Positions 1,415 through 18,964 are shown, numbered from the stretch's first letter. The stretch is 64,000 bases of DNA from an archaeon (GCA_043810285.1 JBDROH010000022.1:8484-72483), one strand, 5' to 3'. Numbers and translations are program-made. The notes: a model not told the origin generated them from the sequence alone.

Positions 1415-2431
1415 TTATTTTAACTTTTCTACAGTCCTTTTACCGTCATCTCCAATATAAGCCACACGATTCCTACCATTTGCTTTCGCATAATACATAA
1501 GACCGTCAACTTCCTTAACAATCCAATTCGTAGCACATTGTGCGACAGACATATCGCGAATATTAGAATTATTTTCTACAACATAAGACTTAACAAAATT
1601 TCCAATTATCCCTACTCGTTTTCTAATCTCTTCCCTTGTTAACTCCTCTCTTTGAACAGGGGAATGATTCGTAGAATACCATCCGAAATAATTATTTAAC
1701 ATCCCCTCAAAATTAGGGTTATCATTAACATAATCAGATATTAACTGCTTCCCACTAGCCCCATACAGAAACCAAAGAGGATTTTCCTGATTTACTTCTA
1801 TAACGCCAGAACTAACAGTTACTGGTTTTCTATGTTTATTCCCTCTTCCATCTACAAAATTCACTTCTGTATCTTCAGTATGAGACTTTAATCTATACGC
1901 CACATCCAATGCATCCGCCTTTTTGGTGTTAGGCAACAAAACAAAAAATTCTTCTCCTCCATACCTAAATGCGACATCCGAATCCCGAATACTTTCTGAA
2001 ACAACACCACTTAAGGTTTTAAGAACAACATCTCCAGCATTATGACCATAAGTATCATTAAACGCCTTAAAACGGTCTATATCAAACATCATTACCGAAA
2101 AAGGATTACGAAGATTCCTATAAGTCGAAGCAAGTTGTTTTTTTAATTCAAAGTCTAAACACCTTCTATTAGATAATCCGGTTAGATAGTCTTTTGTTGA
2201 CAAATCCTTTGTCTTTTCATTTGCTTCATGAATAATATCTCTCAAGAATGAAATAGTATCAGAACTACATTTCCAATCCCTATCAAATATATTCTTCCAA
2301 ATTTCAGTACCTACATAGATTAAATCATTAGGATTTCCCAACGAACTAACCTCTTTTTTAATGCTCTCGGAACTAAGACCCTCATAACTAAGTCTTCTAA
2401 CGATTGAGTCCAATCCCTTATAACCGTTCAT
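1415..2431 (-). CDS. GGDEF-domain protein (diguanylate cyclase-like) with an intact GGEEF active-site motif and an insertion of about 75 aa inside the domain
   Basis: The GGDEF start DYLTGLSNRRCLDFEL, the motifs FDIDRFKAFNDTYGHNAGD and RYGGEEFFVLLP, and VTVSSGVIEV followed by ADGLMYYAKANGRNRV are all present. About 95 residues separate the last two motifs where about 20 is typical. Confidence 0.75.
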   Translation of the reverse strand: MNGYKGLDSIVRRLSYEGLSSESIKKEVSSLGNPNDLIYVGTEIWKNIFDRDWKCSSDTISFLRDIIHEANEKTKDLSTKDYLTGLSNRRCLDFELKKQLASTYRNLRNPFSVMMFDIDRFKAFNDTYGHNAGDVVLKTLSGVVSESIRDSDVAFRYGGEEFFVLLPNTKKADALDVAYRLKSHTEDTEVNFVDGRGNKHRKPVTVSSGVIEVNQENPLWFLYGASGKQLISDYVNDNPNFEGMLNNYFGWYSTNHSPVQREELTREEIRKRVGIIGNFVKSYVVENNSNIRDMSVAQCATNWIVKEVDGLMYYAKANGRNRVAYIGDDGKRTVEKLK

Positions 2432-2585: not shown

Positions 2586-4475
2586 ATGTGGTCATTATAC
2601 GAGCGAAAAAATGAAGATTCTAGTGATGGTGTAAACTTATTTGATTACTCTGGTGAAAAGCTCAAACCACTGAAATTCTCAAATGGAAAAACTCAAGAAG
2701 ACGTCGTCAAAGAAGTCCTCGAGACAATCAACGCCGGAAACAAACTAATTTTCATAAAAGGAATATGCGGAACTGGAAAGTCGGCAATTGCCCTAAATTT
2801 AGCAAGACACTTTAAAAAAACATCAATCGTCGTCCCAATAAAATCCCTCCAAGAGCAATACGAAAAAGATTACACTCAAAAAAAATTCATTATGAAAAAA
2901 GATAGTAATCCTTTAAAAATTGCAGTTATAAAAGGAAGAAATAATTTTAGATGTCCTTTTTCCGGAGAACGTTCCGATGACCCAGAACTTCCATGTACAA
3001 TCGAAATTAGAGAGAAAAATACTGAGCAACTTTTAAAATACATTGATATGAATGAAGCAGTAGAAAAAGAAAATTTCTCATCAGCGTCGGATGTCCGAAG
3101 AATGAACATTGCTCCTGCATGTCCTTACTGGGCACCACTAATGCCTTCAGAAATTAATCCAAAAGGGCTAAATGATGTCACCAAGAAAAAATATCAAGCA
3201 ATATGCGGAAAAGAATTTGCATTATTCTGTAGAAAAAAAGGATGTGGATATTACGACCAATACAAATCCTATATCGACGCTGACGTTCTTATTTTTAACA
3301 GTATGAAATATCAGATAGAAAGTTCAATAGGAAGAAAACCAAAAACAGATATAGATATTATAGATGAGTGCGACGAATTTCTTGATAGTTTTGCTAATGA
3401 ACGAAAAATTAATTTAAACAGATTACACTCGGCACTCTCAAATCTCCAACCAAACGACCAAGAAAAACGAACAAAAGTCAAGGAACTAATCAAAGAAATA
3501 AATAATATTTTGTTCAATCCTCCAACAATAGAAATTCAAAAAATAAACTCCTCCTCATTCCTCAACCTAATAGAAACAATTCTCAAAAACCCAAATCTTG
3601 CCGAAGACGAAGAACTCAGTTATTACAATACTGTAGTAGAAATTGCACGAACATTCGAAAATCTTCTAGATGAAACATATATTTCTATAGCTAAAATAGA
3701 AGAAGAAACCAAACAGAAAGGACTTTTTGGAACTAATTTCTCCAACGAGAAAACAGTAATACTAAATCTGGTTTCAATAAACTTAGCACAAAAAATTCAT
3801 GAACTAATTGAACAAAACAATATTCTAGTCATGATGTCTGGAACCCTTCATTCCGAACAAGTTTTAAAAGATATTTTTGGTTTAGAAGAATTTAAAATCA
3901 TCGAAGCTGAAATCGAAAGCCCTGGCATTATAAAAAAACAACGAACAGGTTTAGAAAAAAATTGTAACTTCTCCAACTTCTCAAATAAAACCATTACTAG
4001 AAAAATGTACCTTAAGATATTAGATATGTGTATGGCAAATGCCGAGCAACCAACTTTAGTTCACGTGAGTGCTTTCAAAGACCTCCCCACAGAAGAAGAA
4101 AATGCCGAATACAAATTTGAAAATTTAATCACTCAAGAAAAATTAAAGGAACTCCAATCAAGAGGAAATACTTCAGTAGATGAATTTACATCAGGTGAAG
4201 AAGATGTTCTATTCACCACAAAATGTTCGCGAGGAGTAGATTTTGCTGGAAACAAATGCAATTCTATTGTCATAACAAAATTTCCCTATCCAAATATTCA
4301 AGGACTCTTCTGGAAGATTCTCAAACAAGAACAACCTGAAAAATTCAAGGAGTTCTATATGGACAAAGCACGAAGAGATTTGATTCAAAAAATCGCAAGA
4401 GGGGTTAGATTCAAGGGAGATAAAGTTTCATTATGGAGTCCGGATATTAGAGTAATGAATGCTAACTTAAATTAA
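2586..4475 (+). CDS. Superfamily 2 helicase of the XPD/Rad3/DinG type, compact at 629 aa
   Basis: Walker A (GICGTGKSA), a Walker B/DExD-like motif (IIDECDEF), a Cys-rich insert after GRNNFRCPF consistent with an FeS domain, the Rad3-family VMMSGTL motif, and a C-terminal TKCSRGVDF motif resembling Rad3 motif VI. Confidence 0.55.
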   Translation: MWSLYERKNEDSSDGVNLFDYSGEKLKPLKFSNGKTQEDVVKEVLETINAGNKLIFIKGICGTGKSAIALNLARHFKKTSIVVPIKSLQEQYEKDYTQKKFIMKKDSNPLKIAVIKGRNNFRCPFSGERSDDPELPCTIEIREKNTEQLLKYIDMNEAVEKENFSSASDVRRMNIAPACPYWAPLMPSEINPKGLNDVTKKKYQAICGKEFALFCRKKGCGYYDQYKSYIDADVLIFNSMKYQIESSIGRKPKTDIDIIDECDEFLDSFANERKINLNRLHSALSNLQPNDQEKRTKVKELIKEINNILFNPPTIEIQKINSSSFLNLIETILKNPNLAEDEELSYYNTVVEIARTFENLLDETYISIAKIEEETKQKGLFGTNFSNEKTVILNLVSINLAQKIHELIEQNNILVMMSGTLHSEQVLKDIFGLEEFKIIEAEIESPGIIKKQRTGLEKNCNFSNFSNKTITRKMYLKILDMCMANAEQPTLVHVSAFKDLPTEEENAEYKFENLITQEKLKELQSRGNTSVDEFTSGEEDVLFTTKCSRGVDFAGNKCNSIVITKFPYPNIQGLFWKILKQEQPEKFKEFYMDKARRDLIQKIARGVRFKGDKVSLWSPDIRVMNANLN

Positions 4476-4486
4476 TTTATACCTCC

Positions 4487-4610
4487 AATCACCGACGACC
4501 CTACTCGAGCATATTCAAGTGATATCGTATCGTTTGCTTTATACTAATTCACACTCAGACTTTTTAATGGTTATCGGTCTACTTATAGGTGACAAAAGTT
4601 AGGGAGATAT
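4487..4610. repeat. Copy 1 of a roughly 120 bp conserved intergenic element. It has a CTACTCGAGCAT arm and a TCGGTCTACTT..GGTGAC arm
   Basis: Aligns with 5222-5345 and 11120-11240 and partially with 6670-6800. It lacks the full CCCCAACC core but retains ACCGACGACCCTACTCGAGC. Confidence 0.6.
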
Positions 4611-4614
4611 AAAA

Positions 4615-4761
4615 TTACTTCTGCTTCTTAAATAAAACAATTGTTAAAATAATGAAGAATATACCAGTTAATGAATACCAAATAAAGTTAGTTTCTGGTT
4701 CTGGAAAAAATAACAGAATAAGTAATCCAATAATTAATGAAATTATCCAAAGGTTTTTCAT
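4615..4761 (-). CDS. Small membrane protein, 48 aa
   Basis: MKNLWIISLIIGLLILLFFPEPETNFIWYSLTGIFFIILTIVLFKKQK. An archaeal TATA box TTTAAATA lies about 25 nt upstream on the minus strand. The promoter and first codons are duplicated at 9898-9975. Confidence 0.35.
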   Translation of the reverse strand: MKNLWIISLIIGLLILLFFPEPETNFIWYSLTGIFFIILTIVLFKKQK

Positions 4762-4812
4762 ATTCTAATCAAGGATGAAACTTATTTAAACTAAACGCCC
4801 CCAACCATTTGT
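4738..4812 (-). promoter_or_regulatory. Archaeal promoter module (TATA TTTAAATA, near-leaderless start) plus the 5' codons of the small membrane protein. Copy A of a roughly 75 bp duplicated module
   Basis: Minus-strand reading GGGGGCGTTTAGTTTAAATAAGTTTCATCCTTGATTAGAAT-ATG. A near-identical copy lies at 9898-9975. Confidence 0.55.
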
Positions 4813-4924
4813 TAGATAGTTTTGGTACAAGTGCGTGTAGATTAAATATGGGCACAAAATCCCTTGAGTATTTAACAAATTCTTTTTTAGTTAAATAGAT
4901 ATATCTAATTTTTCTTATAAAGAT

Positions 4925-5193
4925 ATGAAGATTTCAGAAAGATAAAAAAAATTGCGAAGAAGATTAAAACCGAGATTAAAGTATACAAGGGTGTTTTAAA
5001 CGACAAAAGAACTCCAAAATTAGAAAAAATACTTCTCGGAGCTGGAATTGCATATTCTTTAAGTCCTATAGATATTATCCCAGATTTTATACCTATCTTA
5101 GGTTATGTTGATGATATAATACTCGTCCCTTTGTTGATATTTATAGGGTTAAAATTTATTCCAAGGAAAATCATTAAGAAGTATCGTTGGTAA
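4925..5193 (+). pseudogene. DUF1232 (YkvA-like) membrane protein gene with an apparent frameshift in an A8 run. Either a pseudogene, a programmed shift or a sequencing error
   Basis: ATG at 4925 gives MKISER then a stop. The +1 frame after the A-run at 4944-4951 encodes KKIAKKIKTEIKVYKGVLNDKRTPKLEKILLGAGIAYSLSPIDIIPDFIPILGYVDDIILVPLL, which carries the DUF1232 DxIPDxIPxxGyxDD signature. That frame has no ATG. Confidence 0.35.
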
Positions 5194-5204
5194 AATAAAA
5201 TTCC

Positions 5205-5345
5205 ACCCTTGAATGTCACAAAAGTCCCAACCGGCTAAGACCCTACTCGAGCATCCTTACGGAATGTCATGTAGTTTGCTTTATTCTATTTGGTGGCTTT
5301 TCTTTTTAAATCTTGTCGGTCTACTTGTGGGTGACACCTCTTGGG
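5205..5345. repeat. Copy 2 of the conserved intergenic element, including the tRNA-Asp 3'-end core fragment CCCAACCGG
   Basis: CCCAACCGGCTAAGACCCTACTCGAGCATCCTTACGGAATGTCATGTAGTTTGCTTTAT...TTTAAATCTTGTCGGTCTACTTGTGGGTGAC aligns with copies 1, 3 and 4. Confidence 0.6.
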
Positions 5346-5385
5346 GAGAAGATATAAATAAACCTAAATCAAGAGATTATCTGAT

Positions 5386-5569
5386 GAAAATACCTGAACT
5401 TGAAAAAAAATACGGGAAGGAATTAATTGACAAAATTTTGAAGGGTCATTATTTGGATGGCTGTACTATTGCGATAGTTAATGGCGAAGACGATATTCCT
5501 GAAGGCGATATAAGATTGGCAATTAGAGAAATAAATGGGGATGAAATTGGTAACTGGGAATGGGATTAA
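5386..5569 (+). CDS. Small hypothetical protein upstream of fic. The ORF-track start at 5213 overlaps the repeat element, so a downstream Met is preferred
   Basis: MKIPELEKKYGKELIDKILKGHYLDGCTIAIVNGEDDIPEGDIRLAIREINGDEIGNWEWD. Lies on the same strand directly 5' of the Fic gene. Confidence 0.3.
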
Positions 5570-5706
5570 TTCATGCCTAAAAGGTTATATTTTTGTTATA
5601 TTTTCCTGCCTAAAAGGTTACAGTAACAAACTATCCCCTCGATAACACTGATAATATTTCCTGCCCAAATAGTAAGGTTTTTAAATAAAGAAAACCTGTT
5701 ATAATC

Positions 5707-6663
5707 ATGAGTCATATAGAAATTAAAAAAACAAAAAGTAATAATTACGCATCATTTGTAAAGAAGGTAGTTTTTATGGGAGAGTCATGCGTGATTAAGA
5801 AAAGCATGGGCCTGCAGTCTTCTACCCTTAACAAAGAAAAATTCTTATTGGATAATATTGACTTAATAACAAAAGAAGAATTTGATTTTAGAAAAAAATA
5901 TCTAAGCCAAATTATTTCCAAGATTTCTCATAATGAAAAATTACCTGAAAAAATAGAATTAGCTTCGATTAAATTAAATAATCTAATTGATGCCAAGGAT
6001 TGTCAGGAAGTGGTGGATATAGAATTTGCAAAGGAGTTTATTTTTAATTCAAATAATATTGAAGGTTCCAAAATTCCTCCACAGGCGGTTAGGGAAATTA
6101 TCGATAAGGGTGATACGAGATATTCGGATAAAAATGAAATTAAGGAAGTAAAGAATTCAATTGAGGCATTTAATTATTTGAAAAAATCATTTAAGTTTAA
6201 TATCCAGTCTATAAAAAAACTCTATCATGTTTTAACAAAAGATTTGGAAATGCAAAAAGGGGTTTCTTATCCGAGAGGTTTTAAGAAAGTTCAAAATGTT
6301 GTGGGGAATTCTATAACAACTGCTCCAGAAAATGTGGAGTCTGAGTTAATTGGTTTATTAAGGTGGTATAGAGAAAATAAAGGTAAAATTCATCCGTTAA
6401 TTTTGGCCTTTGAATTTCATAAGCGATATGAAGGTATACATCCTTTTTTAGATGGAAATGGGAGAACAGGAAGGCTGATTATGAATAAGATTTTGATGGG
6501 TAAGGGATACCAGCCTATAATCGTCTATAAGGAAAATAAGGAATCGTATTTTAATTCTTTGGCAAAAGTTAATGATGGAATGTCAAAAAAATATTATCAG
6601 TTTATGTTGGAACAAACTAGAAAGAGTTATGATTTTTTAGAAAGTGTTATAAAAAAATATTAA
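5707..6663 (+). CDS. fic: Fic/Doc (Fido) family protein, a putative AMPylating toxin
   Basis: Canonical Fic motif HPFLDGNGRTGRLIMNKIL, matching HPFx[D/E]GNGRxxR. Confidence 0.85.
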   Translation: MSHIEIKKTKSNNYASFVKKVVFMGESCVIKKSMGLQSSTLNKEKFLLDNIDLITKEEFDFRKKYLSQIISKISHNEKLPEKIELASIKLNNLIDAKDCQEVVDIEFAKEFIFNSNNIEGSKIPPQAVREIIDKGDTRYSDKNEIKEVKNSIEAFNYLKKSFKFNIQSIKKLYHVLTKDLEMQKGVSYPRGFKKVQNVVGNSITTAPENVESELIGLLRWYRENKGKIHPLILAFEFHKRYEGIHPFLDGNGRTGRLIMNKILMGKGYQPIIVYKENKESYFNSLAKVNDGMSKKYYQFMLEQTRKSYDFLESVIKKY

Positions 6664-6669
6664 GGATCA

Positions 6670-6800
6670 ATTTACTCCTTGAATGACGGATAAATCCGAA
6701 ACACTACATTCTTGTCGTTTAGTCGTTTTTCCATTGGTGAGTGTGCGATGGAGACGATATTTAAATCTTGTCGACCACTAAGGGGTGACGGAAGTTAAGA
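6670..6800. repeat. Copy 4, degenerate, of the conserved intergenic element
   Basis: Shares CCTTGAATG at its 5' end and TTTAAATCTTGTCGACCACTAAGGGGTGAC at its 3' end with copy 2. Confidence 0.5.
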
Positions 6801-6809
6801 AAAATATAT

Positions 6810-7331
6810 TTATTCTTCCAGTATATTTTCTATTAATGTTAAAAATTCTTTAGCCCTTTCTAAAGAAGTTTGAGCCTTTGATTTTTTAATATTTTCAGTA
6901 GTCTCATATTGAAATGTAGATCTTTTAACTTTTTCAAAACCATATTTTGTCAAATAATTATCACTAACAGATAAAGCTTCATCTTTTCCTATCTCATAAG
7001 CTTTCAAAAGATGATTTTTTATTTTATGTCTGCCTTGCACAATTAAACCCTCATTTACTACTTGATGGACAATTTCATGTTTTGTTTTGTATCCTAGTTT
7101 GTATAAATATGCACAAGCCATATAGAACATGGAATAATAACTACTCACAACCACCCATAGTGACGAAGAATTATTCTTGAATAATAGGTTGGCGACGCTT
7201 AGGCTCTCTCTTGCATTTCTCAAATAGGTCTCATAAATTAATGTTTTAGGCTTGTCTATTTCCGTTATTTTTCCGTCTCTCAAATAATTTTTGAAATTAT
7301 CTTCCGCTTGTTTTATTCTTTTTTCATCCAT
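6810..7331 (-). CDS. HEPN-domain protein, putative toxin of a HEPN-MNT pair
   Basis: Alpha-helical 173-aa protein with an R-x(4-6)-H-like motif (RHKIKNH). Overlaps the upstream MNT gene by 19 nt, the typical arrangement. Confidence 0.55.
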   Translation of the reverse strand: MDEKRIKQAEDNFKNYLRDGKITEIDKPKTLIYETYLRNARESLSVANLLFKNNSSSLWVVVSSYYSMFYMACAYLYKLGYKTKHEIVHQVVNEGLIVQGRHKIKNHLLKAYEIGKDEALSVSDNYLTKYGFEKVKRSTFQYETTENIKKSKAQTSLERAKEFLTLIENILEE

Positions 7332-7909
7332 TCTGAAATTAAATTATAGTAATTCTCTTTCCCATAAAGTATAATGTTGTTTTTAATTATTTCGTTACCA
7401 AGATTATTTCCTTTCTTTTCTATCATTGAGGTAAATTCTTTTGAGGTAAATTCTTGTATTTCTAAGTTCAAAGATAATAGGCTTAGTTTCTCATTTAATA
7501 TTTTGGATTTAGATTCATTATCTAGAATTATGCAGATATCAATATCTGAATTCTTTGTGTTAGTTTTTTTAATATATGAACCAAATGCCAATACAGTTAG
7601 AAATGGGTAGTTTAATTCTTTGATATATTTTCTTATAACTTTTAAATTTAAATTTTTCGAGAAAAACTCTTCAGTTCTTTTTTCTTCTATTGAAAGAGTT
7701 TCTATATTGTTATTTTGATTAAATTCGATAAGATAGGAGTTTCCTTGCTTGCTTTTTAAATATGTTTTAGGATTTATTTTAGAGAGTGCTTGAGAAGTGT
7801 TTTTATAATCTGCTTTCAGTTTTTGAGAAATCTCCATGATAGAATGTGGAGATTCTTTGTTTTCGATTAAAAATTTCAATATCTTTTCTTTTAGGGTATA
7901 TTTTACCAT
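7313..7909 (-). CDS. Minimal nucleotidyltransferase (MNT), putative antitoxin partner of HEPN
   Basis: LAFGSYIKKTNTKNSDIDICIIL matches the GS-x(9-13)-D-x-D polymerase-beta-like nucleotidyltransferase signature. Confidence 0.7.
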   Translation of the reverse strand: MVKYTLKEKILKFLIENKESPHSIMEISQKLKADYKNTSQALSKINPKTYLKSKQGNSYLIEFNQNNNIETLSIEEKRTEEFFSKNLNLKVIRKYIKELNYPFLTVLAFGSYIKKTNTKNSDIDICIILDNESKSKILNEKLSLLSLNLEIQEFTSKEFTSMIEKKGNNLGNEIIKNNIILYGKENYYNLISEWMKKE

Positions 7910-8022
7910 GATATTATGGTAGTATATACCTTATTTAAATCTTGTGTTTTTGTCAAAACCCTCTCAACCGCCTCCTGCCCTTAATATGTCGACTGACTGT
8001 TGGGATTATCTCTTTTTCTTCT

Positions 8023-8177
8023 TAATTAAAAAATAAATCAATGCTCCACCAGCTAAAATCAAAAATATAGTCTAAAATGATGTCAGAATTTTCTTTGGAT
8101 ATATCTGGAATGCCGTTTTTTACAGATTCTTTCCATAAAAGATATCTTTCTTCATGCTGATATGGGTCAACTTTCAT
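8023..8177 (-). pseudogene. Remnant N-terminal fragment of a second tyrosine integrase
   Basis: MKVDPYQHEERYLLWKESVKNGIPDISKENSDIILDYIFDF is similar to the N-terminus of the intact integrase at 12644 (MEKRDPYKHKERYFRWLKENANGIGGISLRNSSLILAYLYDM). It ends after about 50 aa. Confidence 0.4.
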
Positions 8178-8471
8178 TAATTTTAGAAGGATTCGCAAAT
8201 AAAAAGGTCATTGTATAAATGTTGTATTTTAGACATAGTATCCTATTACTTAAGGAGATATAAAAATGTTTAGAAATCGCCCCAACCGCCGTGACTAGAT
8301 GAGTGTGTCTTTGGTAGGTGGATGGAATTTATTACCGTTTATTAAAATCAATTCCAATATCTTCTAAGATTTTAAGGGATTTTATAGTCTTGAAATAATA
8401 AACTTGTGCATCACTTCTCTTTTTAAAATATAAATAAAAACAAAATCCTGACAGGATCATCATAAACGATT

Positions 8472-9875
8472 TTATTTATGCTTTCCAAATATCTCTCTAA
8501 CATAAACGAACAAAACATCCATATTCATAGCCCACCGAAGAATAGTGCCCCTAAAAAACCCATATTTCTTTTCTTTAACAGGCTGAGAATAATCAAAAGT
8601 TTTATACCCAAATCCCCCAAAATATTTCTTAACATAACAATTTAATCCTGCTTCAACACGATATTTATATTTAAAATACTTAGGAAGAGTCTCCCAAACA
8701 ATTCTTCTCATTGCTCTTTCTCCAGAATTCAAAGCAATGAGACGAATCGTTTTTTGCATAAAATTACTCCTTAATCCAATAAACATATTGAAATCACCTC
8801 TTTTAACTGGTTCAATTATCCCTTTAATTATCTCTAAATTTAATCCTATCAGATCAGCATCACAAAAGAAAATAATATCTGCATCAGTTGAAAACACCCC
8901 TCTTTCCATCGATTCCGCCTTTCCAAGATTTTTCTCATTTTTAAAATATCTAACCTTTGGAAATTTTCTTACTATCTCATATGTATTATCCCTTGATCCA
9001 TCGTCAACAACAACAATTTCATCTATGGACTTGGATTTACTAATGACTTTTAGAACACTCCTTATTCTCTTGGACTCATTAAAAGAAGGTATTATTGCAG
9101 CAACCTTATTTTCATCTTTTTTCCCAAAAAGATTATTCTTTTCAATGAAATCTCCTATCACTCCACAGATTTCATCATCGTATTCTGAAAAAAACAAATT
9201 ATGAACTTTTGTATTAAAAATTTTCTGTTGTTTAACAAAAGATTTTACCTTTTTATTTATATCTCTTATAGAAGCATAATGACCAATTGGATCCAAATAT
9301 GAATGAATTGAAAGAATGGGACAATTTATATTTTCAAATTTTTCTCTCAATTTTTGAGCAGCTTGTTTTGAGATAAAAAATCCATTTACATGCATAAAGT
9401 CATAACTAAAAGCATTTTTTCTCTTTTCTTTTTCATTTTCACATCGATTTTTCCCCCAATATTTTTTATACTTTCTTAAAACCCCTATTCCCCACACATT
9501 AAAAGGAAATTTAAAAAGATAAGGTGGACAAACATCAAAGACACCAAGTATTGGATATTCTGAAGAAAAAGTTAATGCGAGCATAGCACCAAAACTAATC
9601 CCTCCAAGGATTATTCTTCTCCCTTTTCTAATGTCTTTTTCTAATTCTCTTTTAATTTGTTTAAAAAAATCTTCATATTCAAGATTATCTAGATCTTTTA
9701 CATTAGTTCCATGGCCACGTAAAAGAATAATTTTCACATTAGCATTAAATTTTTTATTCAAATAAGCTGGTAAATTGTTGAAATCTGTTGGGCTTCCAGT
9801 ATAGCCATGAATAAGAAAGAACTCCCGATTCGAATTAGCCTTCAATTCTATTGTTTTTACTTTTTCTTCAACCAT
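8472..9875 (-). CDS. Fusion protein: N-terminal alpha/beta-hydrolase (esterase/lipase GxSxG) and C-terminal family-2 glycosyltransferase
   Basis: N-terminal HGYTGSPTDF and GGISFGAMLAL (GxSxG). C-terminal AAIIPSFNESKRIRSV...VVVDDGSRDNT (GT2 DxD region). Confidence 0.65.
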   Translation of the reverse strand: MVEEKVKTIELKANSNREFFLIHGYTGSPTDFNNLPAYLNKKFNANVKIILLRGHGTNVKDLDNLEYEDFFKQIKRELEKDIRKGRRIILGGISFGAMLALTFSSEYPILGVFDVCPPYLFKFPFNVWGIGVLRKYKKYWGKNRCENEKEKRKNAFSYDFMHVNGFFISKQAAQKLREKFENINCPILSIHSYLDPIGHYASIRDINKKVKSFVKQQKIFNTKVHNLFFSEYDDEICGVIGDFIEKNNLFGKKDENKVAAIIPSFNESKRIRSVLKVISKSKSIDEIVVVDDGSRDNTYEIVRKFPKVRYFKNEKNLGKAESMERGVFSTDADIIFFCDADLIGLNLEIIKGIIEPVKRGDFNMFIGLRSNFMQKTIRLIALNSGERAMRRIVWETLPKYFKYKYRVEAGLNCYVKKYFGGFGYKTFDYSQPVKEKKYGFFRGTILRWAMNMDVLFVYVREIFGKHK

Positions 9876-9897
9876 TTTTTAGTAATCCAATACTTAA

Positions 9898-9975
9898 TGA
9901 AACTATCCAAAGGTTTTTCATATTCTAATCAAGGATGAAACTTATTTAAACTAAACGCCCCAACCACTGTTTACT
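9898..9975 (-). promoter_or_regulatory. Copy B of the duplicated promoter/leader module. It encodes a 17-aa truncated MKNLWIVSLSIGLLKNG upstream ORF that overlaps the start of the GT2 fusion gene
   Basis: About 70 of 75 nt identical to 4738-4812, including the TTTAAATA box. The TGA of the upstream ORF overlaps ATGGTTGAAG of the downstream gene. It ends in the att-core fragment CGCCCCAACC. Confidence 0.5.
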
Positions 9976-10037
9976 TCTAGTAGTGTTTGTTTACACCAAT
10001 TATATAAGATAAGTAAAATTCTTACTAATAATCAATT

Positions 10038-10361
10038 TTAATGTTGCATTGCAAGAATATTTTCTATTTCTTCTAGAGTATTATTTGTCGTTCTTAAAAG
10101 ATATTTAAATGCTTTAATATATTTTTCTTTCCCAGAAGTTTTAATAGCAACTTTCCTTTCTTCTTCATTATCAAAAGCAGAATTAATATATTCTTCATCT
10201 TTTAATACAATACCAAAATAAATTGGGTTCATTCCAAAAAATGTTCTCCATCTATTGTTTAACATGCATACATCACCAGGCTTACTACCTCTCTTAAATT
10301 TACTAAAATTCTTAATCTCTCTTTGTAGCGCCTCTTTGATAAACTTGTCCTGATTTTTCAT
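10038..10361 (-). CDS. Hypothetical protein, 107 aa, co-oriented immediately downstream of the NYN gene
   Basis: Clean ORF with no recognisable motif. Lies 60 bp downstream of the NYN gene on the same strand. Confidence 0.4.
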   Translation of the reverse strand: MKNQDKFIKEALQREIKNFSKFKRGSKPGDVCMLNNRWRTFFGMNPIYFGIVLKDEEYINSAFDNEEERKVAIKTSGKEKYIKAFKYLLRTTNNTLEEIENILAMQH

Positions 10362-10421
10362 ATTGATAATTATATTTAGTAAAGGATGTCTGAGTTTTTA
10401 TAGTTTTAGAATAATTTGAGA

Positions 10422-10958
10422 TTAGGATAATTTAATTTCTTCAATAAATTTTTCGTCTATTTTTATTGTTTTATAAGCTACTTTCTTTAGATGATAGGAT
10501 ATTGTTTTGCTGTTTCCTATTGCTACGTAGTTTATTTTTTTCGAAAATCTTTCTTGTGCTGCTTTAACTGCTCCTGAAAAATCTCCATCATTTGATATAA
10601 GAAATGCTTCGTCAAATTCGTTTGCTTGTGCGTCTAAAACTAAATCTAGTGCTAGGTTGACATCTGTCGCTTTTTCAACAAAGTATTCTTCTCCATCCTT
10701 TTTCCGTTTTTCTAATCTTCCAAAGATTATTTTTAGATTTTTGATTTCTCTAAATTTATCAAAAAAACTTTGTTGTTTTGCGTACATTTTAGAATTTTGA
10801 GTTTGGTCTACAGGTGCAATGTAATAATTTATTTTTACTAAATCATTTTTATTAGTAAGTTTTTTACAGAATTCTCCCATATCTATTTTACAATTAAATC
10901 TTTTCTTTATCGAAAAATAGAAATTGCTTCCATCAATGTAGACAATAGATTTTTTCAT
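10422..10958 (-). CDS. NYN-domain (PIN-like) predicted RNase
   Basis: N-terminal VYIDGSNFYF and later LISNDGDFSGAV are the two acidic-residue motifs typical of NYN/LabA-like nucleases. Confidence 0.6.
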   Translation of the reverse strand: MKKSIVYIDGSNFYFSIKKRFNCKIDMGEFCKKLTNKNDLVKINYYIAPVDQTQNSKMYAKQQSFFDKFREIKNLKIIFGRLEKRKKDGEEYFVEKATDVNLALDLVLDAQANEFDEAFLISNDGDFSGAVKAAQERFSKKINYVAIGNSKTISYHLKKVAYKTIKIDEKFIEEIKLS

Positions 10959-11119
10959 ATAATTAAAAAAATCATGGGGTCCGTGAAGATCCCATGGAGT
11001 TTATTGGAGTTAGATATAGTTTAATGTTTAAAAATGTTATGGTTGTGTATTTTTGTGTATTTTCTCGTTGGTAAATCTAAAAATTATGCGTTTTGTCGAC
11101 GTTGTTTTTATTTTTTACG

Positions 11120-11240
11120 ACCCGCCCCAACCGTCCACGACCCAAGTCGAGCATCCTTACGGGATGTCTTGTCATTTGCTTTATACTTGTTGATGGATTT
11201 TATTTAAAAATGTTGTCGACGACTTTGGGGTGACGAATTG
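11120..11240. repeat. Copy 3 of the conserved intergenic element, with the best-preserved tRNA-Asp 3'-end core CGCCCCAACCG
   Basis: CCGCCCCAACCGTCCACGACCCAAGTCGAGCATCCTTACGGGATGTCTTGTCATTTGCTTTATAC...TTGTCGACGACTTTGGGGTGAC. Confidence 0.6.
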
Positions 11241-11311
11241 ATTATTTACAATAGAAAGAAGCTTCTATTGGGAATAGAAACATTTATAAAATATAATCTT
11301 CTGAAATAGAC

Positions 11312-12526
11312 ATGATAACAAAGGAAGTTTTAATGAAAGTAATAAAAATACAAAGAGAGTGGATTAATACAATTGATAAGGGGATAATTAGGGAAAATTT
11401 CCATAACATAAAATTAAAAGAATCTTTCGCGTTGGTTATTTCGGGGATTAGAAGGTGTGGTAAAAGTACTCTTTTGAACCAAATTCTGAAAGGGCAGAAA
11501 AATTTTTATTATTTAAATCTTGAAGATCCTCGACTAGAGGGATTTGAGTTAAAAGATTTTAATAAAGTTGATGAAATTTTTCAAGAGTTATATGGTCCTA
11601 ACGGAACTTATTTCTTTGATGAGATTCAAAATATTGAAAAATGGGAGAAATTTATTAGATTTTTAGTAGACAGAAAAAACGAGATAGTAATAACGGGCTC
11701 AAATGCTTCCTTGTTAAGTCAAGAACTTGGGACAAGACTTACAGGAAGACATATCAGTTACGAATTATTCCCATTTTCATACTTAGAGTTTTTAGAGTTC
11801 TTTAAGCAAAAACCAAATGAAAAATCTTATTCAGAATATCTCTATGAAGGGGGTTTTCCAGAATATTTGAGGGAAAAGGATATGACTGTTTTGCATGAAT
11901 TATTAAAAGATGTTTTAATGAGGGATATTGCAAATAGATTCGGAATTAAGAATACGGAAACATTGAGAAAATTGGCTATCTATTTACTGAGTAATGTTGG
12001 AAAAGAATTTTCATACAATTCCCTTAAGAAAATGTTGGAAGTTAAATCTGTCCAGAGTATCATAGACTATGTTTCTTTTTTGGAGAATGCTTATCTGATT
12101 TTTACAATACCTAAATTCAGTTATTCTTATAAAAAACAACAAGTTAATCCCAAAAAAGTTTATTCAATAGATAACGGATTATCCTATGCTAACTCGGTTT
12201 CTTTTTCAAAAGATAAAGGTAAGATGTTAGAGAATAATGTTTTTTTGAATTTAAGAAAAAGGTATAAAGAAATATTCTATTTCCAAAAAGATAAAGAGTG
12301 TGATTTTGTGGTTAAGGACAGAGAAAAAGTCCTCCTCGCAATCCAAGTTTGTTATGAATTTAATGATGAAAATCAAGATAGAGAAATAAATGGATTACTT
12401 GAAGCTTTGAATGAATTAAAGCTTAAGACTGGATTAATTTTGACGTATAATCAAGAAGATGAATTTGAAATCGATGGGAAGAAAATAATTCTTAAGCCAG
12501 TTTGGAAGTGGTTGATGGAAGAGTAA
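11312..12526 (+). CDS. AAA+ ATPase of the archaeal AAA_14/DUF4143 type (COG1373-like)
   Basis: Walker A GIRRCGKSTLLNQIL, Walker B-like YFFDEIQNI, and a family-typical length of about 400 aa. Confidence 0.7.
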   Translation: MITKEVLMKVIKIQREWINTIDKGIIRENFHNIKLKESFALVISGIRRCGKSTLLNQILKGQKNFYYLNLEDPRLEGFELKDFNKVDEIFQELYGPNGTYFFDEIQNIEKWEKFIRFLVDRKNEIVITGSNASLLSQELGTRLTGRHISYELFPFSYLEFLEFFKQKPNEKSYSEYLYEGGFPEYLREKDMTVLHELLKDVLMRDIANRFGIKNTETLRKLAIYLLSNVGKEFSYNSLKKMLEVKSVQSIIDYVSFLENAYLIFTIPKFSYSYKKQQVNPKKVYSIDNGLSYANSVSFSKDKGKMLENNVFLNLRKRYKEIFYFQKDKECDFVVKDREKVLLAIQVCYEFNDENQDREINGLLEALNELKLKTGLILTYNQEDEFEIDGKKIILKPVWKWLMEE

Positions 12527-12643
12527 TCGTTTAATGCCTGGGATGAATTGCAGCAACTTGCCGGAAAACTTCTAAATAAAGATTTCAAAAAACATACCAA
12601 TAAGGTAAGAAAATTAGTTCTTTTTAAAAGTAATTAATATGGT

Positions 12644-13774
12644 ATGGAAAAAAGAGATCCATACAAACATAAAGAAAGATACTTCAGATGGTTAAAAGAA
12701 AATGCAAATGGGATAGGGGGGATTTCTTTAAGAAATTCTTCTTTAATCTTGGCTTATTTGTACGATATGCAAGAAGGATTAAATGTTTCAGTAAAATCAA
12801 AAAAAGGTCCAAGAAGTTATACAAGACTAAACAACATAATCCAAAGAATGGTTTTCTTGGCGAAGAAATTTGAAGAAATTTACAGATTAGAAGATATGTC
12901 TCAAATAGATGAAAACATTCTGCATAATTATTTCAATGGAGTAAAAGATGGGACTATCAGAAGATTTGATGGAGAAATATACAGGGACCCTGCAAATCTG
13001 GTAAAGATTTTCAAAGCTTTTTGGCACTGGTGGCAAAAAGTTAACAGAAAGGAAGGAAATGGAATAAAAGACATTACAATAGACTTAGATGCCACTTGTG
13101 ATAAGCCTAAATGGGTTTATATGACCGAAGAACAAATCGCCAAACTTTGTCAAAAAGCTTCTTTTGACTATAATGTCTTGATAACTTTTCTTTATGACTC
13201 TGGAATAAGGGCCCCAACAGAACTTTTAAACATAAGAATCTCGGACTTTCAAAACGAGTTCAGGGAACTGACTATAAGGGAAGAAGTAAGCAAGACTTTT
13301 GGAAGGAGAATCAAATTAATGTTCTCTTCTGAATTAATAAAAAAATATGTGGACAAAAAAGGGCTTTCAAAAGAAGACTATCTTTTCTCATTAAGTCCTT
13401 ATACAATAAATTCTAATCTTCAAAAACTGGTAAAAAAAGTTTTGGGGACAGAAGTAAGTCCTGCAGGACAAAAATACTCTGAACTCACCATGTATGATTT
13501 CCGACATTGCTCATGTTGTTACTGGCTACCAAAATATAAATCTGAATCAGGTCTAAAATATCGTTTTGGTTGGAAAAAGTCAGAAAGGATCCATTATTAT
13601 TCTGAGATGCTTGGGATGCAAGACACTATTTCTGAAGAAGATTTATTTGAAGATACTGGTGGGATGGTCTTCAAAAGAAAAGTGAATAAGATTTACACAG
13701 ATAATAGGCTACAAGAATCTAGGTTAGACTTTCTTGAGAGAAAGATTCAAGAGTTAGGTAAGAAAGTAACTTGA
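12644..13774 (+). CDS. Tyrosine recombinase/integrase
   Basis: Box I-like LYDSGIRAPTELLNIRISDF and box II-like MYDFRHCSCCYW (H-x-x-R) followed by Tyr residues. The gene ends 140 bp from the 3' end of the tRNA-Asp gene. Confidence 0.7.
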   Translation: MEKRDPYKHKERYFRWLKENANGIGGISLRNSSLILAYLYDMQEGLNVSVKSKKGPRSYTRLNNIIQRMVFLAKKFEEIYRLEDMSQIDENILHNYFNGVKDGTIRRFDGEIYRDPANLVKIFKAFWHWWQKVNRKEGNGIKDITIDLDATCDKPKWVYMTEEQIAKLCQKASFDYNVLITFLYDSGIRAPTELLNIRISDFQNEFRELTIREEVSKTFGRRIKLMFSSELIKKYVDKKGLSKEDYLFSLSPYTINSNLQKLVKKVLGTEVSPAGQKYSELTMYDFRHCSCCYWLPKYKSESGLKYRFGWKKSERIHYYSEMLGMQDTISEEDLFEDTGGMVFKRKVNKIYTDNRLQESRLDFLERKIQELGKKVT

Positions 13775-13913
13775 GTCCTCCAAAAAATACTTCAATGCCC
13801 CGTCAAAAATCTCGACGCTCCGAACGGACAAAGACTTGAGTTCTCAAGAGAAGTAAATGTATTCGTCGTCGACAAAAACTATAAAACTTCAATCCACCGT
13901 CGGTAAAAACCCA

Positions 13914-13985
13914 CGCCCCAACCGGGGATTGAACCCGGATCTCGACCGCGACAGGGTCGTGTACTAACCACTATACTATTGAGGC
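13914..13985 (-). tRNA. tRNA-Asp (GTC)
   Basis: Cloverleaf read by hand. Acceptor GCCTCAA/TTGGGGC, D arm GTAT-AGTGGTTA-GTAC, anticodon stem CGACC/GGTCG with loop CTGTCGC (anticodon GTC), T arm CCGGG-TTCAATC-CCCGG. 72 nt. Confidence 0.85.
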
Positions 13986-14034
13986 TTGTAATTTAATTGA
14001 AGAATTGATTTAAAAGACTTACTATTTTTTCTTT

Positions 14035-14988
14035 GTTGTGCAAGCAAGTGACATATGTCACCCCCTAAAACAATAGCTCAAAATCATTATAAATTTCATC
14101 TGGCGTTTTATTATCCAAGCTCATATGTGGTCTAAAATGATTATAGTTCATTCTCCAGAGCTCAACATCTTCATTGCAAAACTTAAACTCTCTTTTGAAA
14201 GTTTGAAACAATCTCTCAACTTTTCCTTGCGTTGTTGGGCTATGAACTGTTCCTCTAATGTGTTCTATTCCCCTCTTTCTACATCTTCTGTCAAATCTTG
14301 AATGTCTGCTTTTCAAACCATAAGCTGAACCATTATCAGTTAGAATTTGTTTTGGCTTGCCATAAATTTTAATTAACTTATCGATTAAATTTATCACAAT
14401 ATCCGTCGTAACAACGTTAGTTACAGCAAAAGCTAAACTTTTTCTTGAGCAATCATCGACGACAGAAACTACCCACTTATCTTTAATTTTTTGTTGGCTA
14501 TGATCAATCTGCCAAAGAGAATTAGGACGTTTTCTTTGAAAACGAATATATTTTATTCTTTTCTTTTTTCTTTTAGTTGGTTCAGTTAGTTTGTGTTTGT
14601 TTAGAATTTTATTAATAGATGTATGGCTTAAGTTTACAAAGTTTTCAATTTTTTCAGCCCCAAAACCAGTTTTCTCTCTTATAGAAATAATCTTATTTTC
14701 TATCTCTTTAGTTATTTTTCTATGAATCATTTTAGGACGTCTGGACTTATCATTCAAATCCCAATTATCATTTGTATCTAATTCGTGTACCCATCTTTTC
14801 AAAGTTCGATTAGTTATTTCGAATTTATGTTTTACAAAAAGTATTTTTCTACATTGGTTATATGAATGTCCCTCCATTTTTAGTTTAAAAAATATCTTTC
14901 TGATTTCTTCTTTTTTCATAAAAAGAATCAAAAAACACTGCGGAACTAATTTTCGGTGCTAGTGACATATGTCACTGGATTGCACACT
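14035..14988. mobile_element. Insertion sequence of about 950 bp with 18-19 bp imperfect terminal inverted repeats and a palindromic core AGTGACATATGTCAC at both ends
   Basis: Left TGTGCAAGCAAGTGACATATGTCAC (14035-14061) and right AGTGACATATGTCACTGGATTGCACA (14962-14988) flank a single transposase ORF. Confidence 0.75.
14065..14931 (-). CDS. DDE transposase with integrase core (rve) domain and N-terminal HTH, IS481/IS3-like
   Basis: WQIDHSQQKIKDKWVVSVVDDCSRKSLAFAVT....ILTDNGSAYG shows the D..D..E core pattern. An N-terminal helix-turn-helix region is present. Confidence 0.8.
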   Translation of the reverse strand: MILFMKKEEIRKIFFKLKMEGHSYNQCRKILFVKHKFEITNRTLKRWVHELDTNDNWDLNDKSRRPKMIHRKITKEIENKIISIREKTGFGAEKIENFVNLSHTSINKILNKHKLTEPTKRKKKRIKYIRFQRKRPNSLWQIDHSQQKIKDKWVVSVVDDCSRKSLAFAVTNVVTTDIVINLIDKLIKIYGKPKQILTDNGSAYGLKSRHSRFDRRCRKRGIEHIRGTVHSPTTQGKVERLFQTFKREFKFCNEDVELWRMNYNHFRPHMSLDNKTPDEIYNDFELLF

Positions 14989-15208
14989 ATTTTTTCTTTG
15001 TTTTCTTTTTTGTCTTATTTTCTGAAATCTTTGCAACTTCTACTCGGAGTTTTTCAATTTCTTCTAAGAGTGTTGCGTGATTTAGACTAAGGTGTTGTAT
15101 TTTCTCATGAATATCTGAAAAGGCATCGTTAAGCATTAACATATCTTTTTTCACATACCCGAAACTCGCAGAGATATCTTTTTCAATTTGTTTAATTGAT
15201 TTTTCCAT
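14987..15208 (-). CDS. Small coiled-coil protein (hypothetical)
   Basis: 73-aa ORF with heptad pattern and a Lys-rich tail. Weak support. Confidence 0.25.
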   Translation of the reverse strand: MEKSIKQIEKDISASFGYVKKDMLMLNDAFSDIHEKIQHLSLNHATLLEEIEKLRVEVAKISENKTKKKTKKK

Positions 15209-15302
15209 AATATTCCATATATTTTATATTTATAAACTTTTGTAACTTTAAAATTGCGACAAAAAACGGGAATGATTAAAAAGAACTAATCTCTGTAACT
15301 TT

Positions 15303-15578
15303 ATGGATAATCTCTTACAACGTTTACCTTCAGTTCATTCTTGTAATACTGTTTTGGAAGAGAGAAAAATTCAGGTAGATGGGAGAATCTTAAATTTGAA
15401 TCCCTATCCAGTTGATTATTGTCCGAAATGTAATATCTACAAGTATAATGATATCGAATCTATGAATCCAAGATTTGTTGGAAGGTACATAACTCGGTTG
15501 CAAGAAGAAACAAATCAACTAACAAATAAATCTATGTTTAACATCAAATTTAGATCTAGTCCAAACAAAAAGCCTTAA
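15303..15578 (+). CDS. Hypothetical small protein with a CxxC pair
   Basis: 91-aa ORF upstream of the U32 gene containing YCPKCNIY. Confidence 0.3.
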   Translation: MDNLLQRLPSVHSCNTVLEERKIQVDGRILNLNPYPVDYCPKCNIYKYNDIESMNPRFVGRYITRLQEETNQLTNKSMFNIKFRSSPNKKP

Positions 15579-15602
15579 AATGTTATTTTTTGTTCTTATT
15601 TT

Positions 15603-16793
15603 ATGAAATCAGATTACGAACTCTTAGCCCCTGTTGGAGATTTTAAGAATTTACATGCGGCGGTAGTAGCGGGAGCTGATGCAGTATACTTTGGGATTAA
15701 AGGATTTAATATGCGGGCTAGCGCAAAGAATTTCAGCGTTAGGGACTTAAAAAGAATTCGACGGATTTGCAATGATTCCTCTAGAAAGCCTAAAATGTAT
15801 TTAACCTTGAACACAGTAGTTTATGACAGAGAATTGAAGAAACTTGAGAAAATTGTAAAAGCGGTTAAGGGGAAAGTTGATGCGATTATTTGTTGGGATA
15901 TGTTGGTGATTGTATTATGTAAAAAATATGGTGTTCCATTTCATGTTTCTACTCAAGCATCTATTTCTAATGTTTCTGCCGCTAAAATTTATAAGAATCT
16001 TGGAGCTAAAAGAATAGTTCTTGCTAGAGAATTGAATTTAGAGCAGATTAAAAAAATATCCAATGTGATTGATATTGAGTGTTTTTGTCATGGAGCAATG
16101 TGCGTCGCAATTTCAGGAAGATGTTTTACTTCGCAATTTGTTAAAAGGCTTTCGGCTAATCGTGGACAGTGTGTGCAACTTTGTCGACGAGCTTGGGAAA
16201 TTAAAGATGATGAAGGAAATAAGTTGGTTCTGAATAATAATCGGGTGATGTCCGCGAAGGATTTGTGTACATTGCCTTTTATCGAGAATATGAAGAAAGC
16301 CGGAATTAAATCATTTAAAATTGAAGGAAGAAATCGAAGTCCAGAATATGTTTATGCAGTAGTATCTGAATATAGAAATGCTTTAGATAATAATTTAAAT
16401 CGAACTGAGATTATTGAAGGGATTGCTCGGTTGAAGAAAGTTTACAATAGAGGATTCAGTTCCGGGTTCTATTTGAAAATGCCGACGGCAGATGACTTTT
16501 CGTTTAGTGAAAATGGAGAACAAGAAGAAAGGAAAGAGTTTGTTGGACGAGTTGAGAGGTATTGGCCAAAGGCTGGAGCAGCATCGGTTAAAATGTTTGC
16601 TGGTTGTTTGAATGTTGGCGATAATGTGTATTTAATTTCGAAAGATGCCCCAATTCAGAGAGTTGTTGTTAAGAGTATTGAATTCGAAAGCAAGGATGTC
16701 AAGGTCGCTAAAAAGGGTCAGGAAATTGGAGTTAATTTTGGTGTTGTAGTAAAACGTGGCGACGAGGTTTATGTTATTAGGTCTGCTTCTTAA
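15603..16793 (+). CDS. Peptidase U32 family protein
   Basis: N-terminal ELLAPVGDFKNLHAAVVAGADAVYFG and the CHGAMCVAISGRCFTS Cys motif are characteristic of U32. Confidence 0.8.
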   Translation: MKSDYELLAPVGDFKNLHAAVVAGADAVYFGIKGFNMRASAKNFSVRDLKRIRRICNDSSRKPKMYLTLNTVVYDRELKKLEKIVKAVKGKVDAIICWDMLVIVLCKKYGVPFHVSTQASISNVSAAKIYKNLGAKRIVLARELNLEQIKKISNVIDIECFCHGAMCVAISGRCFTSQFVKRLSANRGQCVQLCRRAWEIKDDEGNKLVLNNNRVMSAKDLCTLPFIENMKKAGIKSFKIEGRNRSPEYVYAVVSEYRNALDNNLNRTEIIEGIARLKKVYNRGFSSGFYLKMPTADDFSFSENGEQEERKEFVGRVERYWPKAGAASVKMFAGCLNVGDNVYLISKDAPIQRVVVKSIEFESKDVKVAKKGQEIGVNFGVVVKRGDEVYVIRSAS

Positions 16794-17295
16794 AACTTAA
16801 AATAGTTAAAAAAAGAATTATCCCTCCGAAAATAAACCCTCCAATGATATCAGTTAACCAATGAACTCTTAGATAAATTCTCGTAAAACCTACTAAAAAA
16901 ATTGTTAGAATAGCAATTAGTGAGGATATTAATTTTATTTTCTTTGATTTGTTTTTCGAGAATAGATAAACTATTAGTCCAAAGAAAACAACAGCCATTG
17001 TTGAATGTCCGCTCGGAAACGAGAAACCAATTTCTTGAACTATTTGATTTAATGGACGAGTTCTTTGGAAAATTTCCTTGGATACTTTTATTAATATGCC
17101 CGTTAAGAGTATTGCCGAGGTAAAAATGATTCCTTTTTTCTTAGATGATTTAACGTAGAGGTATATTGCAATAATTAGAGAAATTGCAATTAAAGTTATT
17201 GGATCAAAAATTAATGCTAAGACTTTAGAGAAAATTGTTAATTGGGAAGTTTGGATTGATTGCATAAATATATTTGTCACGGTGTCGATTAGCAT
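16777..17295 (-). CDS. PAP2-family phosphatase (membrane)
   Basis: Motifs KxxxxxxRP (RTRPLNQ), SFPSGHS and RVHWLTDIIGG, with multiple TM helices. Confidence 0.8.
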   Translation of the reverse strand: MLIDTVTNIFMQSIQTSQLTIFSKVLALIFDPITLIAISLIIAIYLYVKSSKKKGIIFTSAILLTGILIKVSKEIFQRTRPLNQIVQEIGFSFPSGHSTMAVVFFGLIVYLFSKNKSKKIKLISSLIAILTIFLVGFTRIYLRVHWLTDIIGGFIFGGIILFLTILSFKKQT

Positions 17296-17296
17296 C

Positions 17297-18001: not shown

Positions 18002-18042
18002 AGGATTTGGAATACAGCAAGGTTTAAAAGTGTAATTTTTGT

Positions 18043-18360
18043 TTGTGTCTTATGTCAAAAGTACGAATCAAATTGCAAAGTGTAGAAATCGGTAAATTGA
18101 ATGACGTTATCGATATGATAAAAACTATTGCTAGCGGTGCAGGAATTCCAATAAGTGGACCGATTCCATTACCGACGAAGCGATTGAAAGTAACTACTAG
18201 GAAATCTCCTTGCGGTGATGGAACTGCAACTTTCGACAGATTCGAAATGAGGATTCACAAACGTATTATTGATTTACCTGCTAATGATAAAATTCTTCAT
18301 AGTATTATGAGAATCAATATTCCTAGAACGGTTAAGATTAAGATTGAGATGGTTGATTAA
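18043..18360 (+). CDS. rps10: Ribosomal protein uS10
   Basis: Archaeal S10 sequence: RIKLQSVEIGKLNDVIDMIKTIASGAGIPISGPIPLPTKRLKVTTRKSPCGDGTATFDRFEMRIHKRIID. Confidence 0.85.
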   Translation: MCLMSKVRIKLQSVEIGKLNDVIDMIKTIASGAGIPISGPIPLPTKRLKVTTRKSPCGDGTATFDRFEMRIHKRIIDLPANDKILHSIMRINIPRTVKIKIEMVD

Positions 18361-18399
18361 AGAGATTATAATAATACTTAAAAAGATGTTTTTTTCAAT

Positions 18400-18834: not shown

Positions 18835-18857
18835 TCTTAAAAACCATTCTCTCGGTT

Positions 18858-18938: not shown

Positions 18939-18964
18939 GGTGTGGGCGTAAATTAAAATCAAGT

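Follow-up and report, generated by a model that had tools for sequence, protein, structure and literature searches.

A conserved non-coding element next to tRNA-Asp in DPANN archaea: probable attachment-site arm of small integrative elements

Cis-mobilizable elements (CIMEs), known from the work on ICESt1 of Streptococcus thermophilus, are flanked by attachment (att) sites and carry no integrase. In the tycheposons of Prochlorococcus, successive integrations have left elements that are separated by partial tRNA copies only, and in Prochlorococcus islands fragmented integrases and extra partial tRNAs mark the older events (bioRxiv 10.1101/2020.12.28.424599). Here we analysed a 64,000-nt stretch of AT-rich archaeal DNA (GC about 0.29-0.39; hereafter the window), in whose RNA polymerase we found the Rpb2 domains 4 and 5. 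Between 4.4 kb and 14 kb it carries an array of modules next to a tRNA-Asp gene, together with three full copies of a conserved non-coding element, here called class A. This element is most probably the P arm of the attP site of small DPANN integrative elements that insert at the 3′ end of tRNA-Asp via a Cre/Xer-like tyrosine recombinase. The element is genuine and has been conserved in related genomes, yet it is an ordinary kind of feature.

The locus shares with lambda/P4-type islands and integrative and conjugative elements (ICEs) targeting tRNA genes a core identical to the tRNA 3′ end at both ends, an integrase at the tRNA end, about 100-140 bp of conserved non-coding DNA on each side of the core and variable cargo. 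It differs from them by its 11-bp core, its DPANN host, a predicted outward archaeal promoter in one arm and a two-domain Cre/Xer-type recombinase which, according to its structural model, has no lambda-like arm-binding domain. Similarly to tycheposons, the window has elements separated by partial tRNAs, and an integrase fragment. The domain of life and the integrase family are nevertheless different, the remnants (0.3-3 kb) contain mostly toxin-antitoxin or defence genes, and a long conserved arm is kept besides the tRNA fragment. Integrase-less modules bounded by functional-looking att sites and placed in tandem with an integrase-bearing element are reminiscent of CIMEs and ICE accretion, as are distant integrase homologues heading islands that bear a type IV secretion system (T4SS); in contrast, the integrase-bearing module of the window has no conjugation genes. 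Finally, arrays of small cassettes with a repeated recombination site and a tyrosine recombinase beside them are also seen with the attC sites of integrons, including archaeal integrons (PMC9668308). The window recombinase, however, does not match the IntI signature, no folded hairpin is present, genes lie on both strands with promoter-like boxes (in those inspected) and the site is anchored on a tRNA end. Literature searches returned no description of this element family, and the analysis reveals no new mechanism.

A repeat search located the three full copies, all on the + strand, at 4484-4576 (copy 1), 5226-5318 (copy 2) and 11126-11218 (copy 3), with identities of 66-81%; their nhmmer extents were 4478-4607, 5214-5349 and 11114-11241 (E-values 2e-31 to 7e-37). 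An independent profile, built from copies of other genomes with no window sequence at all, matched the same three sites at 4484-4594 (E 2e-15), 5222-5336 (E 1e-27) and 11123-11235 (E 1e-24). Besides a partial match to the distal arm at 6757-6790 (E 1e-5), the next-best match of this profile in the rest of the 64 kb had an E-value of only 0.2. A covariance model scored copies 1, 2 and 3 at 94.6, 119.7 and 112.7 bits, respectively. The three full copies proposed by the initial annotation are real, and the two arms that it quoted proved to be conserved blocks of the element.

These blocks were defined in an alignment of 14 distinct copies from nine loci, nearly gap-free between blocks and with a mean column identity of 82%. 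On the + strand, the core is followed by ACGACCC-A-TCGAGCAT, then by a CATC-N7-GATG palindrome with a variable loop, the invariant TTTGCTTTA, AATTGGTGGCTTTT, TTTAA-TCTTGTCG and GGTGAC. The core-proximal part contains ACGACCC, which is a near-repeat of the ACGCCCC of the core, the CATC-N7-GATG palindrome and the invariant TTTGCTTTAT. Read on the minus strand, the distal arm is GTCACC-N9-(A)CCGACAAGA-TTTAAA, also written GTCACC-N9-CGACAAGA-TTTAAA. The core is the first block of every full copy, and in all 14 copies core and blocks are spaced within ±1 nt, so that the element stands at a fixed distance from the core. It had been noticed earlier that copies lie beside a tRNA-core fragment; this is true of all three full copies, the core being itself a conserved block of the element.

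On the + strand, the core CGCCCCAACCG is the 3′-terminal 11 nt (13914-13924) of the intact tRNA-Asp(GTC) gene (13914-13985, minus strand). The exact core recurs at 11123, 9956 and 8278, and degenerate versions are found at 5226, 4796 and 4484; matches with at most one mismatch amount to five against 0.69 expected by chance. Copy 3 carries the exact core at 11123-11133, followed by the proximal arm ACGACCC..TCGAGCATCC-loop-GGATGTC...TTTGCTTTAT and the distal arm TTTAAAAATGTTGTCGACGAC...GGGGTGAC, and represents the far (distal) end of the only module still holding its integrase. In copy 2, the core CCCAACCGG at 5226-5234 retains 9 of 11 positions, and to its left lies CCACCCTTGAATG, an arm type found ahead of integrase genes in related elements. 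Copy 1 is the most decayed, with a degenerate core TCCAATCACCG at 4484-4494 and the small palindrome displaced to ATAT-N7-ATAT. It adjoins the stop codon of a chromosomal helicase gene (2586-4475) and thus marks the far end of the array. No copy was found outside the array in the 64 kb, nor outside arrays and att junctions in about 250 kb of related loci, and all six + strand ACG[AC]CCC sites of the 64 kb fall within the array. The identity of the core with the tRNA-Asp end, the fixed block spacing and the confinement of copies and ACG[AC]CCC sites to the array, in one orientation, all argue for an att arm.

Between copy 3 and the intact tRNA-Asp gene lies a gene for a divergent tyrosine recombinase of 376 aa (12644-13774, + strand; hereafter the integrase), convergent with tRNA-Asp and labelled ‘hypothetical’; this position is a further argument for the att-arm reading. 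The protein has no Pfam match of its own even at E≤1, and its identification therefore rests on homologues, a PDB match and the predicted fold. More than 2191 homologues were retrieved, many of them annotated as tyrosine recombinase or PF00589 and two of them above the PF00589 cutoff. The top 120 show 54-100% identity, have mostly ~375-395 aa and come, where the source is named, from Pacearchaeota, Nanoarchaeota and Diapherotrites. By sequence, the PDB entry that matches best is XerA (4a8e, E 0.004), and the AlphaFold model (mean pLDDT, predicted local distance difference test, of 72.8) resembles Cre, XerH, Tn1549 Int and XerA. The integrase scores far under the NCBIfam cutoffs for XerA and for integron integrases. 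From its stop codon to the tRNA core extends a second conserved arm (P′ arm; 13775-13913, + strand), shared with the related loci L105, L108 and L119. CTTCAAT(G/C)C(C/A)CCGTC repeats occur in it at about 13790 and 13887, and GTCGTCGAC at 13864-13873; overall, the P′ arm has two or three CTTCAAYGCCCCGTC-like repeats, and its GTCGTCGAC motif mirrors GTCGACGAC of the distal arm. An SSV-type split is not the case here: the integrase gene is intact and outside the core, and the element has no conserved open frame.

We then compared the window with other genomes. Scanning genome contigs with the loose pattern TCGAGCATN{18,22}TTTGCTTTAT gave 96 matches, among which only one locus, L011, also showed the flanking motifs looked for, the remainder looking like chance; viral contigs gave no match. 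True copies correspond to this genome-collection locus and to five metagenome loci (L097-L101), and further copies came from contigs fetched via integrase homologues. Upstream of the true copies lies CGCCCCAACCG or CGCCCTAACCG, with the exception of L011 and L099, where the core is degenerate (CCCTCCG). Related DPANN contigs contain a recurrent module composed of core and element, variable cargo, integrase, second conserved arm and core again. L108-L111 show, in this order, the element (8549-8674, with its core at 8555), nucleotidyltransferase (NT)/HEPN, integrase, a 118-nt arm and tRNA-Asp, and the second core of L108 is an intact tRNA-Asp as in the window. L105 has the same layout as L108, with a different arm type past the second core, and L116 carries three class-A copies upstream of its integrase. 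The cargo changes from one module to the other (L102, L105, L108 and L116): the position of the window ATPase is occupied by NT/HEPN in L105 and L108 and by RelA_SpoT in L102, while the DUF4143 ATPase found beside copy 3 recurs in L116, where it is inverted with respect to its element. When the window was compared with related loci by BLASTN, alignments were confined to the element, integrase, P′ arm and tRNA and to some scattered genes of the cargo. That the modules have these parts in common and differ in cargo argues again for an att arm, as does the presence of integrase homologues (55-60% identity) directly 3′ of tRNA-Asp in L114, L123, L124 and L125. The proposal that an extended att arm is delivered with each module is thus borne out by the core at fixed spacing, the recombinase beside the tRNA and a layout that recurs with different cargo.

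Distant integrase homologues head conjugative-like islands with an N6/N4 methylase, a TrbC-like T4SS pilin and a TraC/VirB4-like ATPase. Such islands were seen in L112, L114, L123, L124 and L125, in DPANN archaea (at about 11-21 kb in each). Among the defence functions that they carry are a Shedu SduA domain, an OLD-TOPRIM ATPase with UvrD helicase, GmrSD and HEPN. In L108, tRNA-Asp has inverted cores and distal arms on its other side as well (12895-14354 and 18853), and the SNase-PAP2-tRNA-Ser block is found on one side of tRNA-Asp in the window (16777-18949) and on the other in L108/L114. These two observations suggest inversions between att sites. In L116, a gene for an 1828-aa family-B DNA polymerase (12543-18029) adjoins the att array. 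Assemblies break at the class-A/core repeat, L106 ending exactly at an att core and L107 starting inside a class-A element.

A simple model can be proposed for the organization of these elements. The free circle would carry the P′ arm, the 11-bp core (equal to the tRNA end) and then the class-A element, giving an attP that spans about 260 bp. In the integrated form, the P′ arm would stay by the tRNA together with the integrase gene, and core and class-A element would be found at the far end. Successive insertions at one tRNA would push older elements outward; these would lose their integrase and keep the arm, which would leave three copies on the same strand at module boundaries. The core-proximal part may bind the recombinase or helper proteins as double-stranded DNA. 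Binding of the integrase itself is suggested only by motifs, namely by the resemblance of ACGACCC to the core and by its clustering in the array. The distal part would be a promoter/operator module of the family, firing toward the core.

Core copies, arms and an integrase remnant indicate tandem accretion with decay, and from 4.4 to 14 kb of the window at least six integrated elements, mostly decayed, are stacked in tandem. E1, nearest to the tRNA, comprises the P′ arm, the integrase, an AAA_14/DUF4143 ATPase (11312-12526, + strand) as cargo of this intact module, class-A copy 3 and the core at 11123. E2 contains a P′-like arm, a NYN gene, a 107-aa open reading frame (ORF) and the core at 9956 (9956-9965, + strand), an exact core without class-A arm at the boundary between two decayed modules. 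E3 is composed of a GT2/hydrolase gene, another arm type and the core at 8278. E4 opens with an integrase-promoter arm, followed by the N-terminal fragment of an integrase (8022-8198); next come NT/HEPN, a stub with an integrase-type promoter (6691-6799), Fic, class-A copy 2 and the core at 5226. The stretch 8022-8288 (minus strand), with core (8278-8288), integrase-promoter arm and integrase N-terminal fragment, is a remnant of an older element with another layout. Its integrase-promoter arm (about 8199-8277) resembles those of L114, L097 and L102, and the fragment is recognized by BLASTP (E 5e-12) and is 80.6% identical to the 5′ region of the L114 integrase. Decay products of this kind, the N-terminal fragment and the promoter stub, also favor the att-arm reading. 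E5 has a gene at about 4937-5194, DUF1232-like as judged by eye, and the core at 4796 (4796-4806, + strand), a degenerate CGCCCCCAACC with one extra C at a module boundary. E6 holds a gene for a 48-aa membrane protein, class-A copy 1 and a degenerate core against the helicase gene. An 81-nt repeat with 98% identity (4721-4801 and 9881-9961) spans the promoter and the start of the 48-aa membrane-protein gene, its second copy fronting the GT2/hydrolase fusion gene; this duplication is a sign of recent recombination within the array.

The distal arm was also considered from the point of view of transcription. Ahead of 48 long ORFs of the window, TATA-like hexamers are most frequent at -26 relative to the ATG, a geometry as in leaderless archaeal genes. 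In L112, the distal-arm module is found directly upstream of the integrase gene, ~27 nt from its ATG, and it is similarly spaced before small ORFs at 6691-6799 in the window and at 415-469 in L100. Applied to the full copies, this geometry sets the predicted start inside the invariant ATAAAGCAAA block, in the direction of the core. The distal arm thus reads as a putative archaeal promoter module facing the core, and the -26 peak and the same geometry before the L112 integrase and the small ORFs speak for the att-arm model presented above. The other suggestion of the initial annotation, a repeated regulatory element, is partly right as well: the distal arm is of promoter type and lies directly upstream of the L112 integrase. 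Other arm classes have the core and the distal module in common with class A.

Two further sites had been listed as copies. At 6691-6799 (minus strand), within a supposed degenerate copy at 6670-6800, only the distal arm is present and the rest of the element is missing: nhmmer matched the distal arm alone at 6758-6799, the partial match of the independent profile falls here and the covariance model gave 25.8 bits for 6691-6791. On the minus strand, GTCACCCC..GTCGACAAGATTTAAATAT is followed by ~25 nt (CCATCGCACAC) and then by ATG GAA AAA CGA, which reads as a putative integrase-type promoter with a four-codon integrase-like stub (MEKR). The supposed weaker copy at 7920-8000 is not a copy, being undetected at E≤10 by profile and covariance model. 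It has in common with the family just a ~13-nt promoter-like ACAAGATTTAAAT stretch, located ~25 nt upstream of a minus-strand ATG at 7909 in an NT/HEPN operon and followed by unrelated sequence. A 34-nt exact match links 7967-8000 of the window to 10102-10135 of L100, in contexts otherwise unrelated.

Several observations weigh against an attP arm. Neither an excised circle nor an empty site was found, so that we infer mobility from comparative structure alone; regarding a circular form, the short contigs have no terminal overlap and two contigs break at the core. The cores at 9956 and 8278 bear other arm types. In the structural model of the integrase, the N-terminal region is all-helical and a lambda-type arm-binding domain is lacking. 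This gives no support to classical arm-site recognition, and any binding would be of core type or via accessory proteins. A same-strand gene lies downstream of the core-directed predicted promoter in only 5 of 11 copies, a count on which we also rejected a predicted outward promoter driving the neighbouring cassette. Finally, with the layout of the window, circularization would leave the predicted outward promoter antisense to the integrase.

We doubt that the tRNA-Asp locus is a cassette-capture platform of a non-IntI Cre/Xer-like recombinase. On such a platform, integrase-less modules with a class-A (or B/C/D) arm and a core would be live, excised and re-inserted in trans, and would shuffle toxin-antitoxin and defence genes among genomes; the promoter directed at the core would act as a recombination-coupled switch, active only across a joined site. 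The promoter geometry, which sets a predicted start within the invariant block in all copies, would also suit a small non-coding RNA (ncRNA) gene: a ~55-60 nt transcript starting from ATAAAGCAAA, with a hairpin and ending in the tRNA-Asp 3′-end sequence, could act on recombination or tRNA processing. A 5-bp hairpin is paired in 95.7% of cells although its loop sequence varies. However, there were no compensatory pairs and shuffles equalled the observed alignment, the RNAalifold consensus had only this kind of 5-bp stem (-3.3 kcal on the + strand and -2.1 kcal on the - strand), and single-sequence fold z-scores scattered about 0 on both strands (RNA energy parameters). Folding, consensus folding and pair counts thus support no conserved secondary structure of the element. 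In addition, the wobble pairs of the hairpin suit the + strand while the promoter is on the - strand, Rfam recognized only tRNAs in the window and left the element unmatched, and no terminator follows the core, which makes an ncRNA unlikely. No coding frame is conserved either, any frame being open in at most 3 of 14 copies and variability having no 3-nt periodicity; a non-coding element with neither stable fold nor covariation agrees with an att arm. The same folding results bear on an integron-like platform, where the elements would be attC analogues recombined as folded single strands and the recombinase by tRNA-Asp would capture single cassettes. Short cassettes that have a common site at their boundaries and are rich in toxin-antitoxin or defence-type genes (Fic, HEPN/NT, NYN, DUF4143 ATPase) would fit, as would arms that are, as read off the sequence, weakly inverted repeats (ACGACCC..TCGAG and GTCGAC..GGGTGAC). 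But a stable hairpin is absent from both strands, the recombinase reaches 22.2 bits against the integron-integrase model TIGR02249 (cutoff 265), cassette genes lie on both strands and in those inspected a TATA-like box precedes the ATG by ~25 nt, and junctions hold integrase remnants and P′ arms as predicted by whole-element accretion. We regard this platform as very unlikely.

Slightly less credible still is a decayed tRNA-Asp gene with its promoter, carried along or duplicated and functionless in itself. The element does stand next to the core where the tRNA body would be, with a TATA box that is separated from the core by about 70 nt (about 85 nt in the real gene), short matches (ACGACCC, TCGAG) and a weak alignment of the covariance model to the L119 tRNA-Asp locus (17 bits, E 0.32). 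Yet similarity to tRNA-Asp was not significant by MAFFT alignment or covariance model, T arm and acceptor pairing are absent, and invariant blocks separated by variable spacers over 14 copies are unlike neutral decay. A split tRNA half was rejected too, the element having, as far as can be read off its sequence, no T arm or acceptor complement. The initial annotation had considered a miniature inverted-repeat transposable element (MITE). A MITE, or another dispersed mobile repeat clustering here by chance, would explain a short, non-coding, multi-copy element with weakly inverted arms. It fails on the single orientation of the copies and on the lack of dispersed ones in the DNA surveyed; the only flank in common is the tRNA core, no other target-site duplication being seen, and the one nearby transposase belongs to an unrelated insertion sequence (IS) with its own inverted repeats. 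A MITE therefore appears highly improbable.

Other features were noted in the window and related loci. The IS, at 14037-14986, has an rve-family transposase gene (14065-14931, minus strand) and 25-nt terminal inverted repeats, and sits just upstream of the tRNA-Asp promoter. An Rfam tRNA match of 44 bits at 37578-37648 (minus strand) is absent from the ARAGORN output, and a GGDEF diguanylate-cyclase domain protein is encoded in this archaeal genome at 1415-2431 (minus strand) of the window. In L118, a 24-bp inverted repeat, GCACCCATSAAATGCCGAC.GTCT, flanks an att core at about 15940-16040, where an integrase-promoter arm meets a class-C arm, an architecture unlike class A.

The genomes of DPANN archaea are tiny, and their mobile elements have been poorly charted. 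The present analysis ties a conserved non-coding site to a large integrase family of poor annotation (>2000 homologues) and to tRNA-Asp, their common target. It offers a practical means of marking out integrated elements and defence islands in DPANN genomes and of accounting for assembly breaks at the tRNA-Asp locus.

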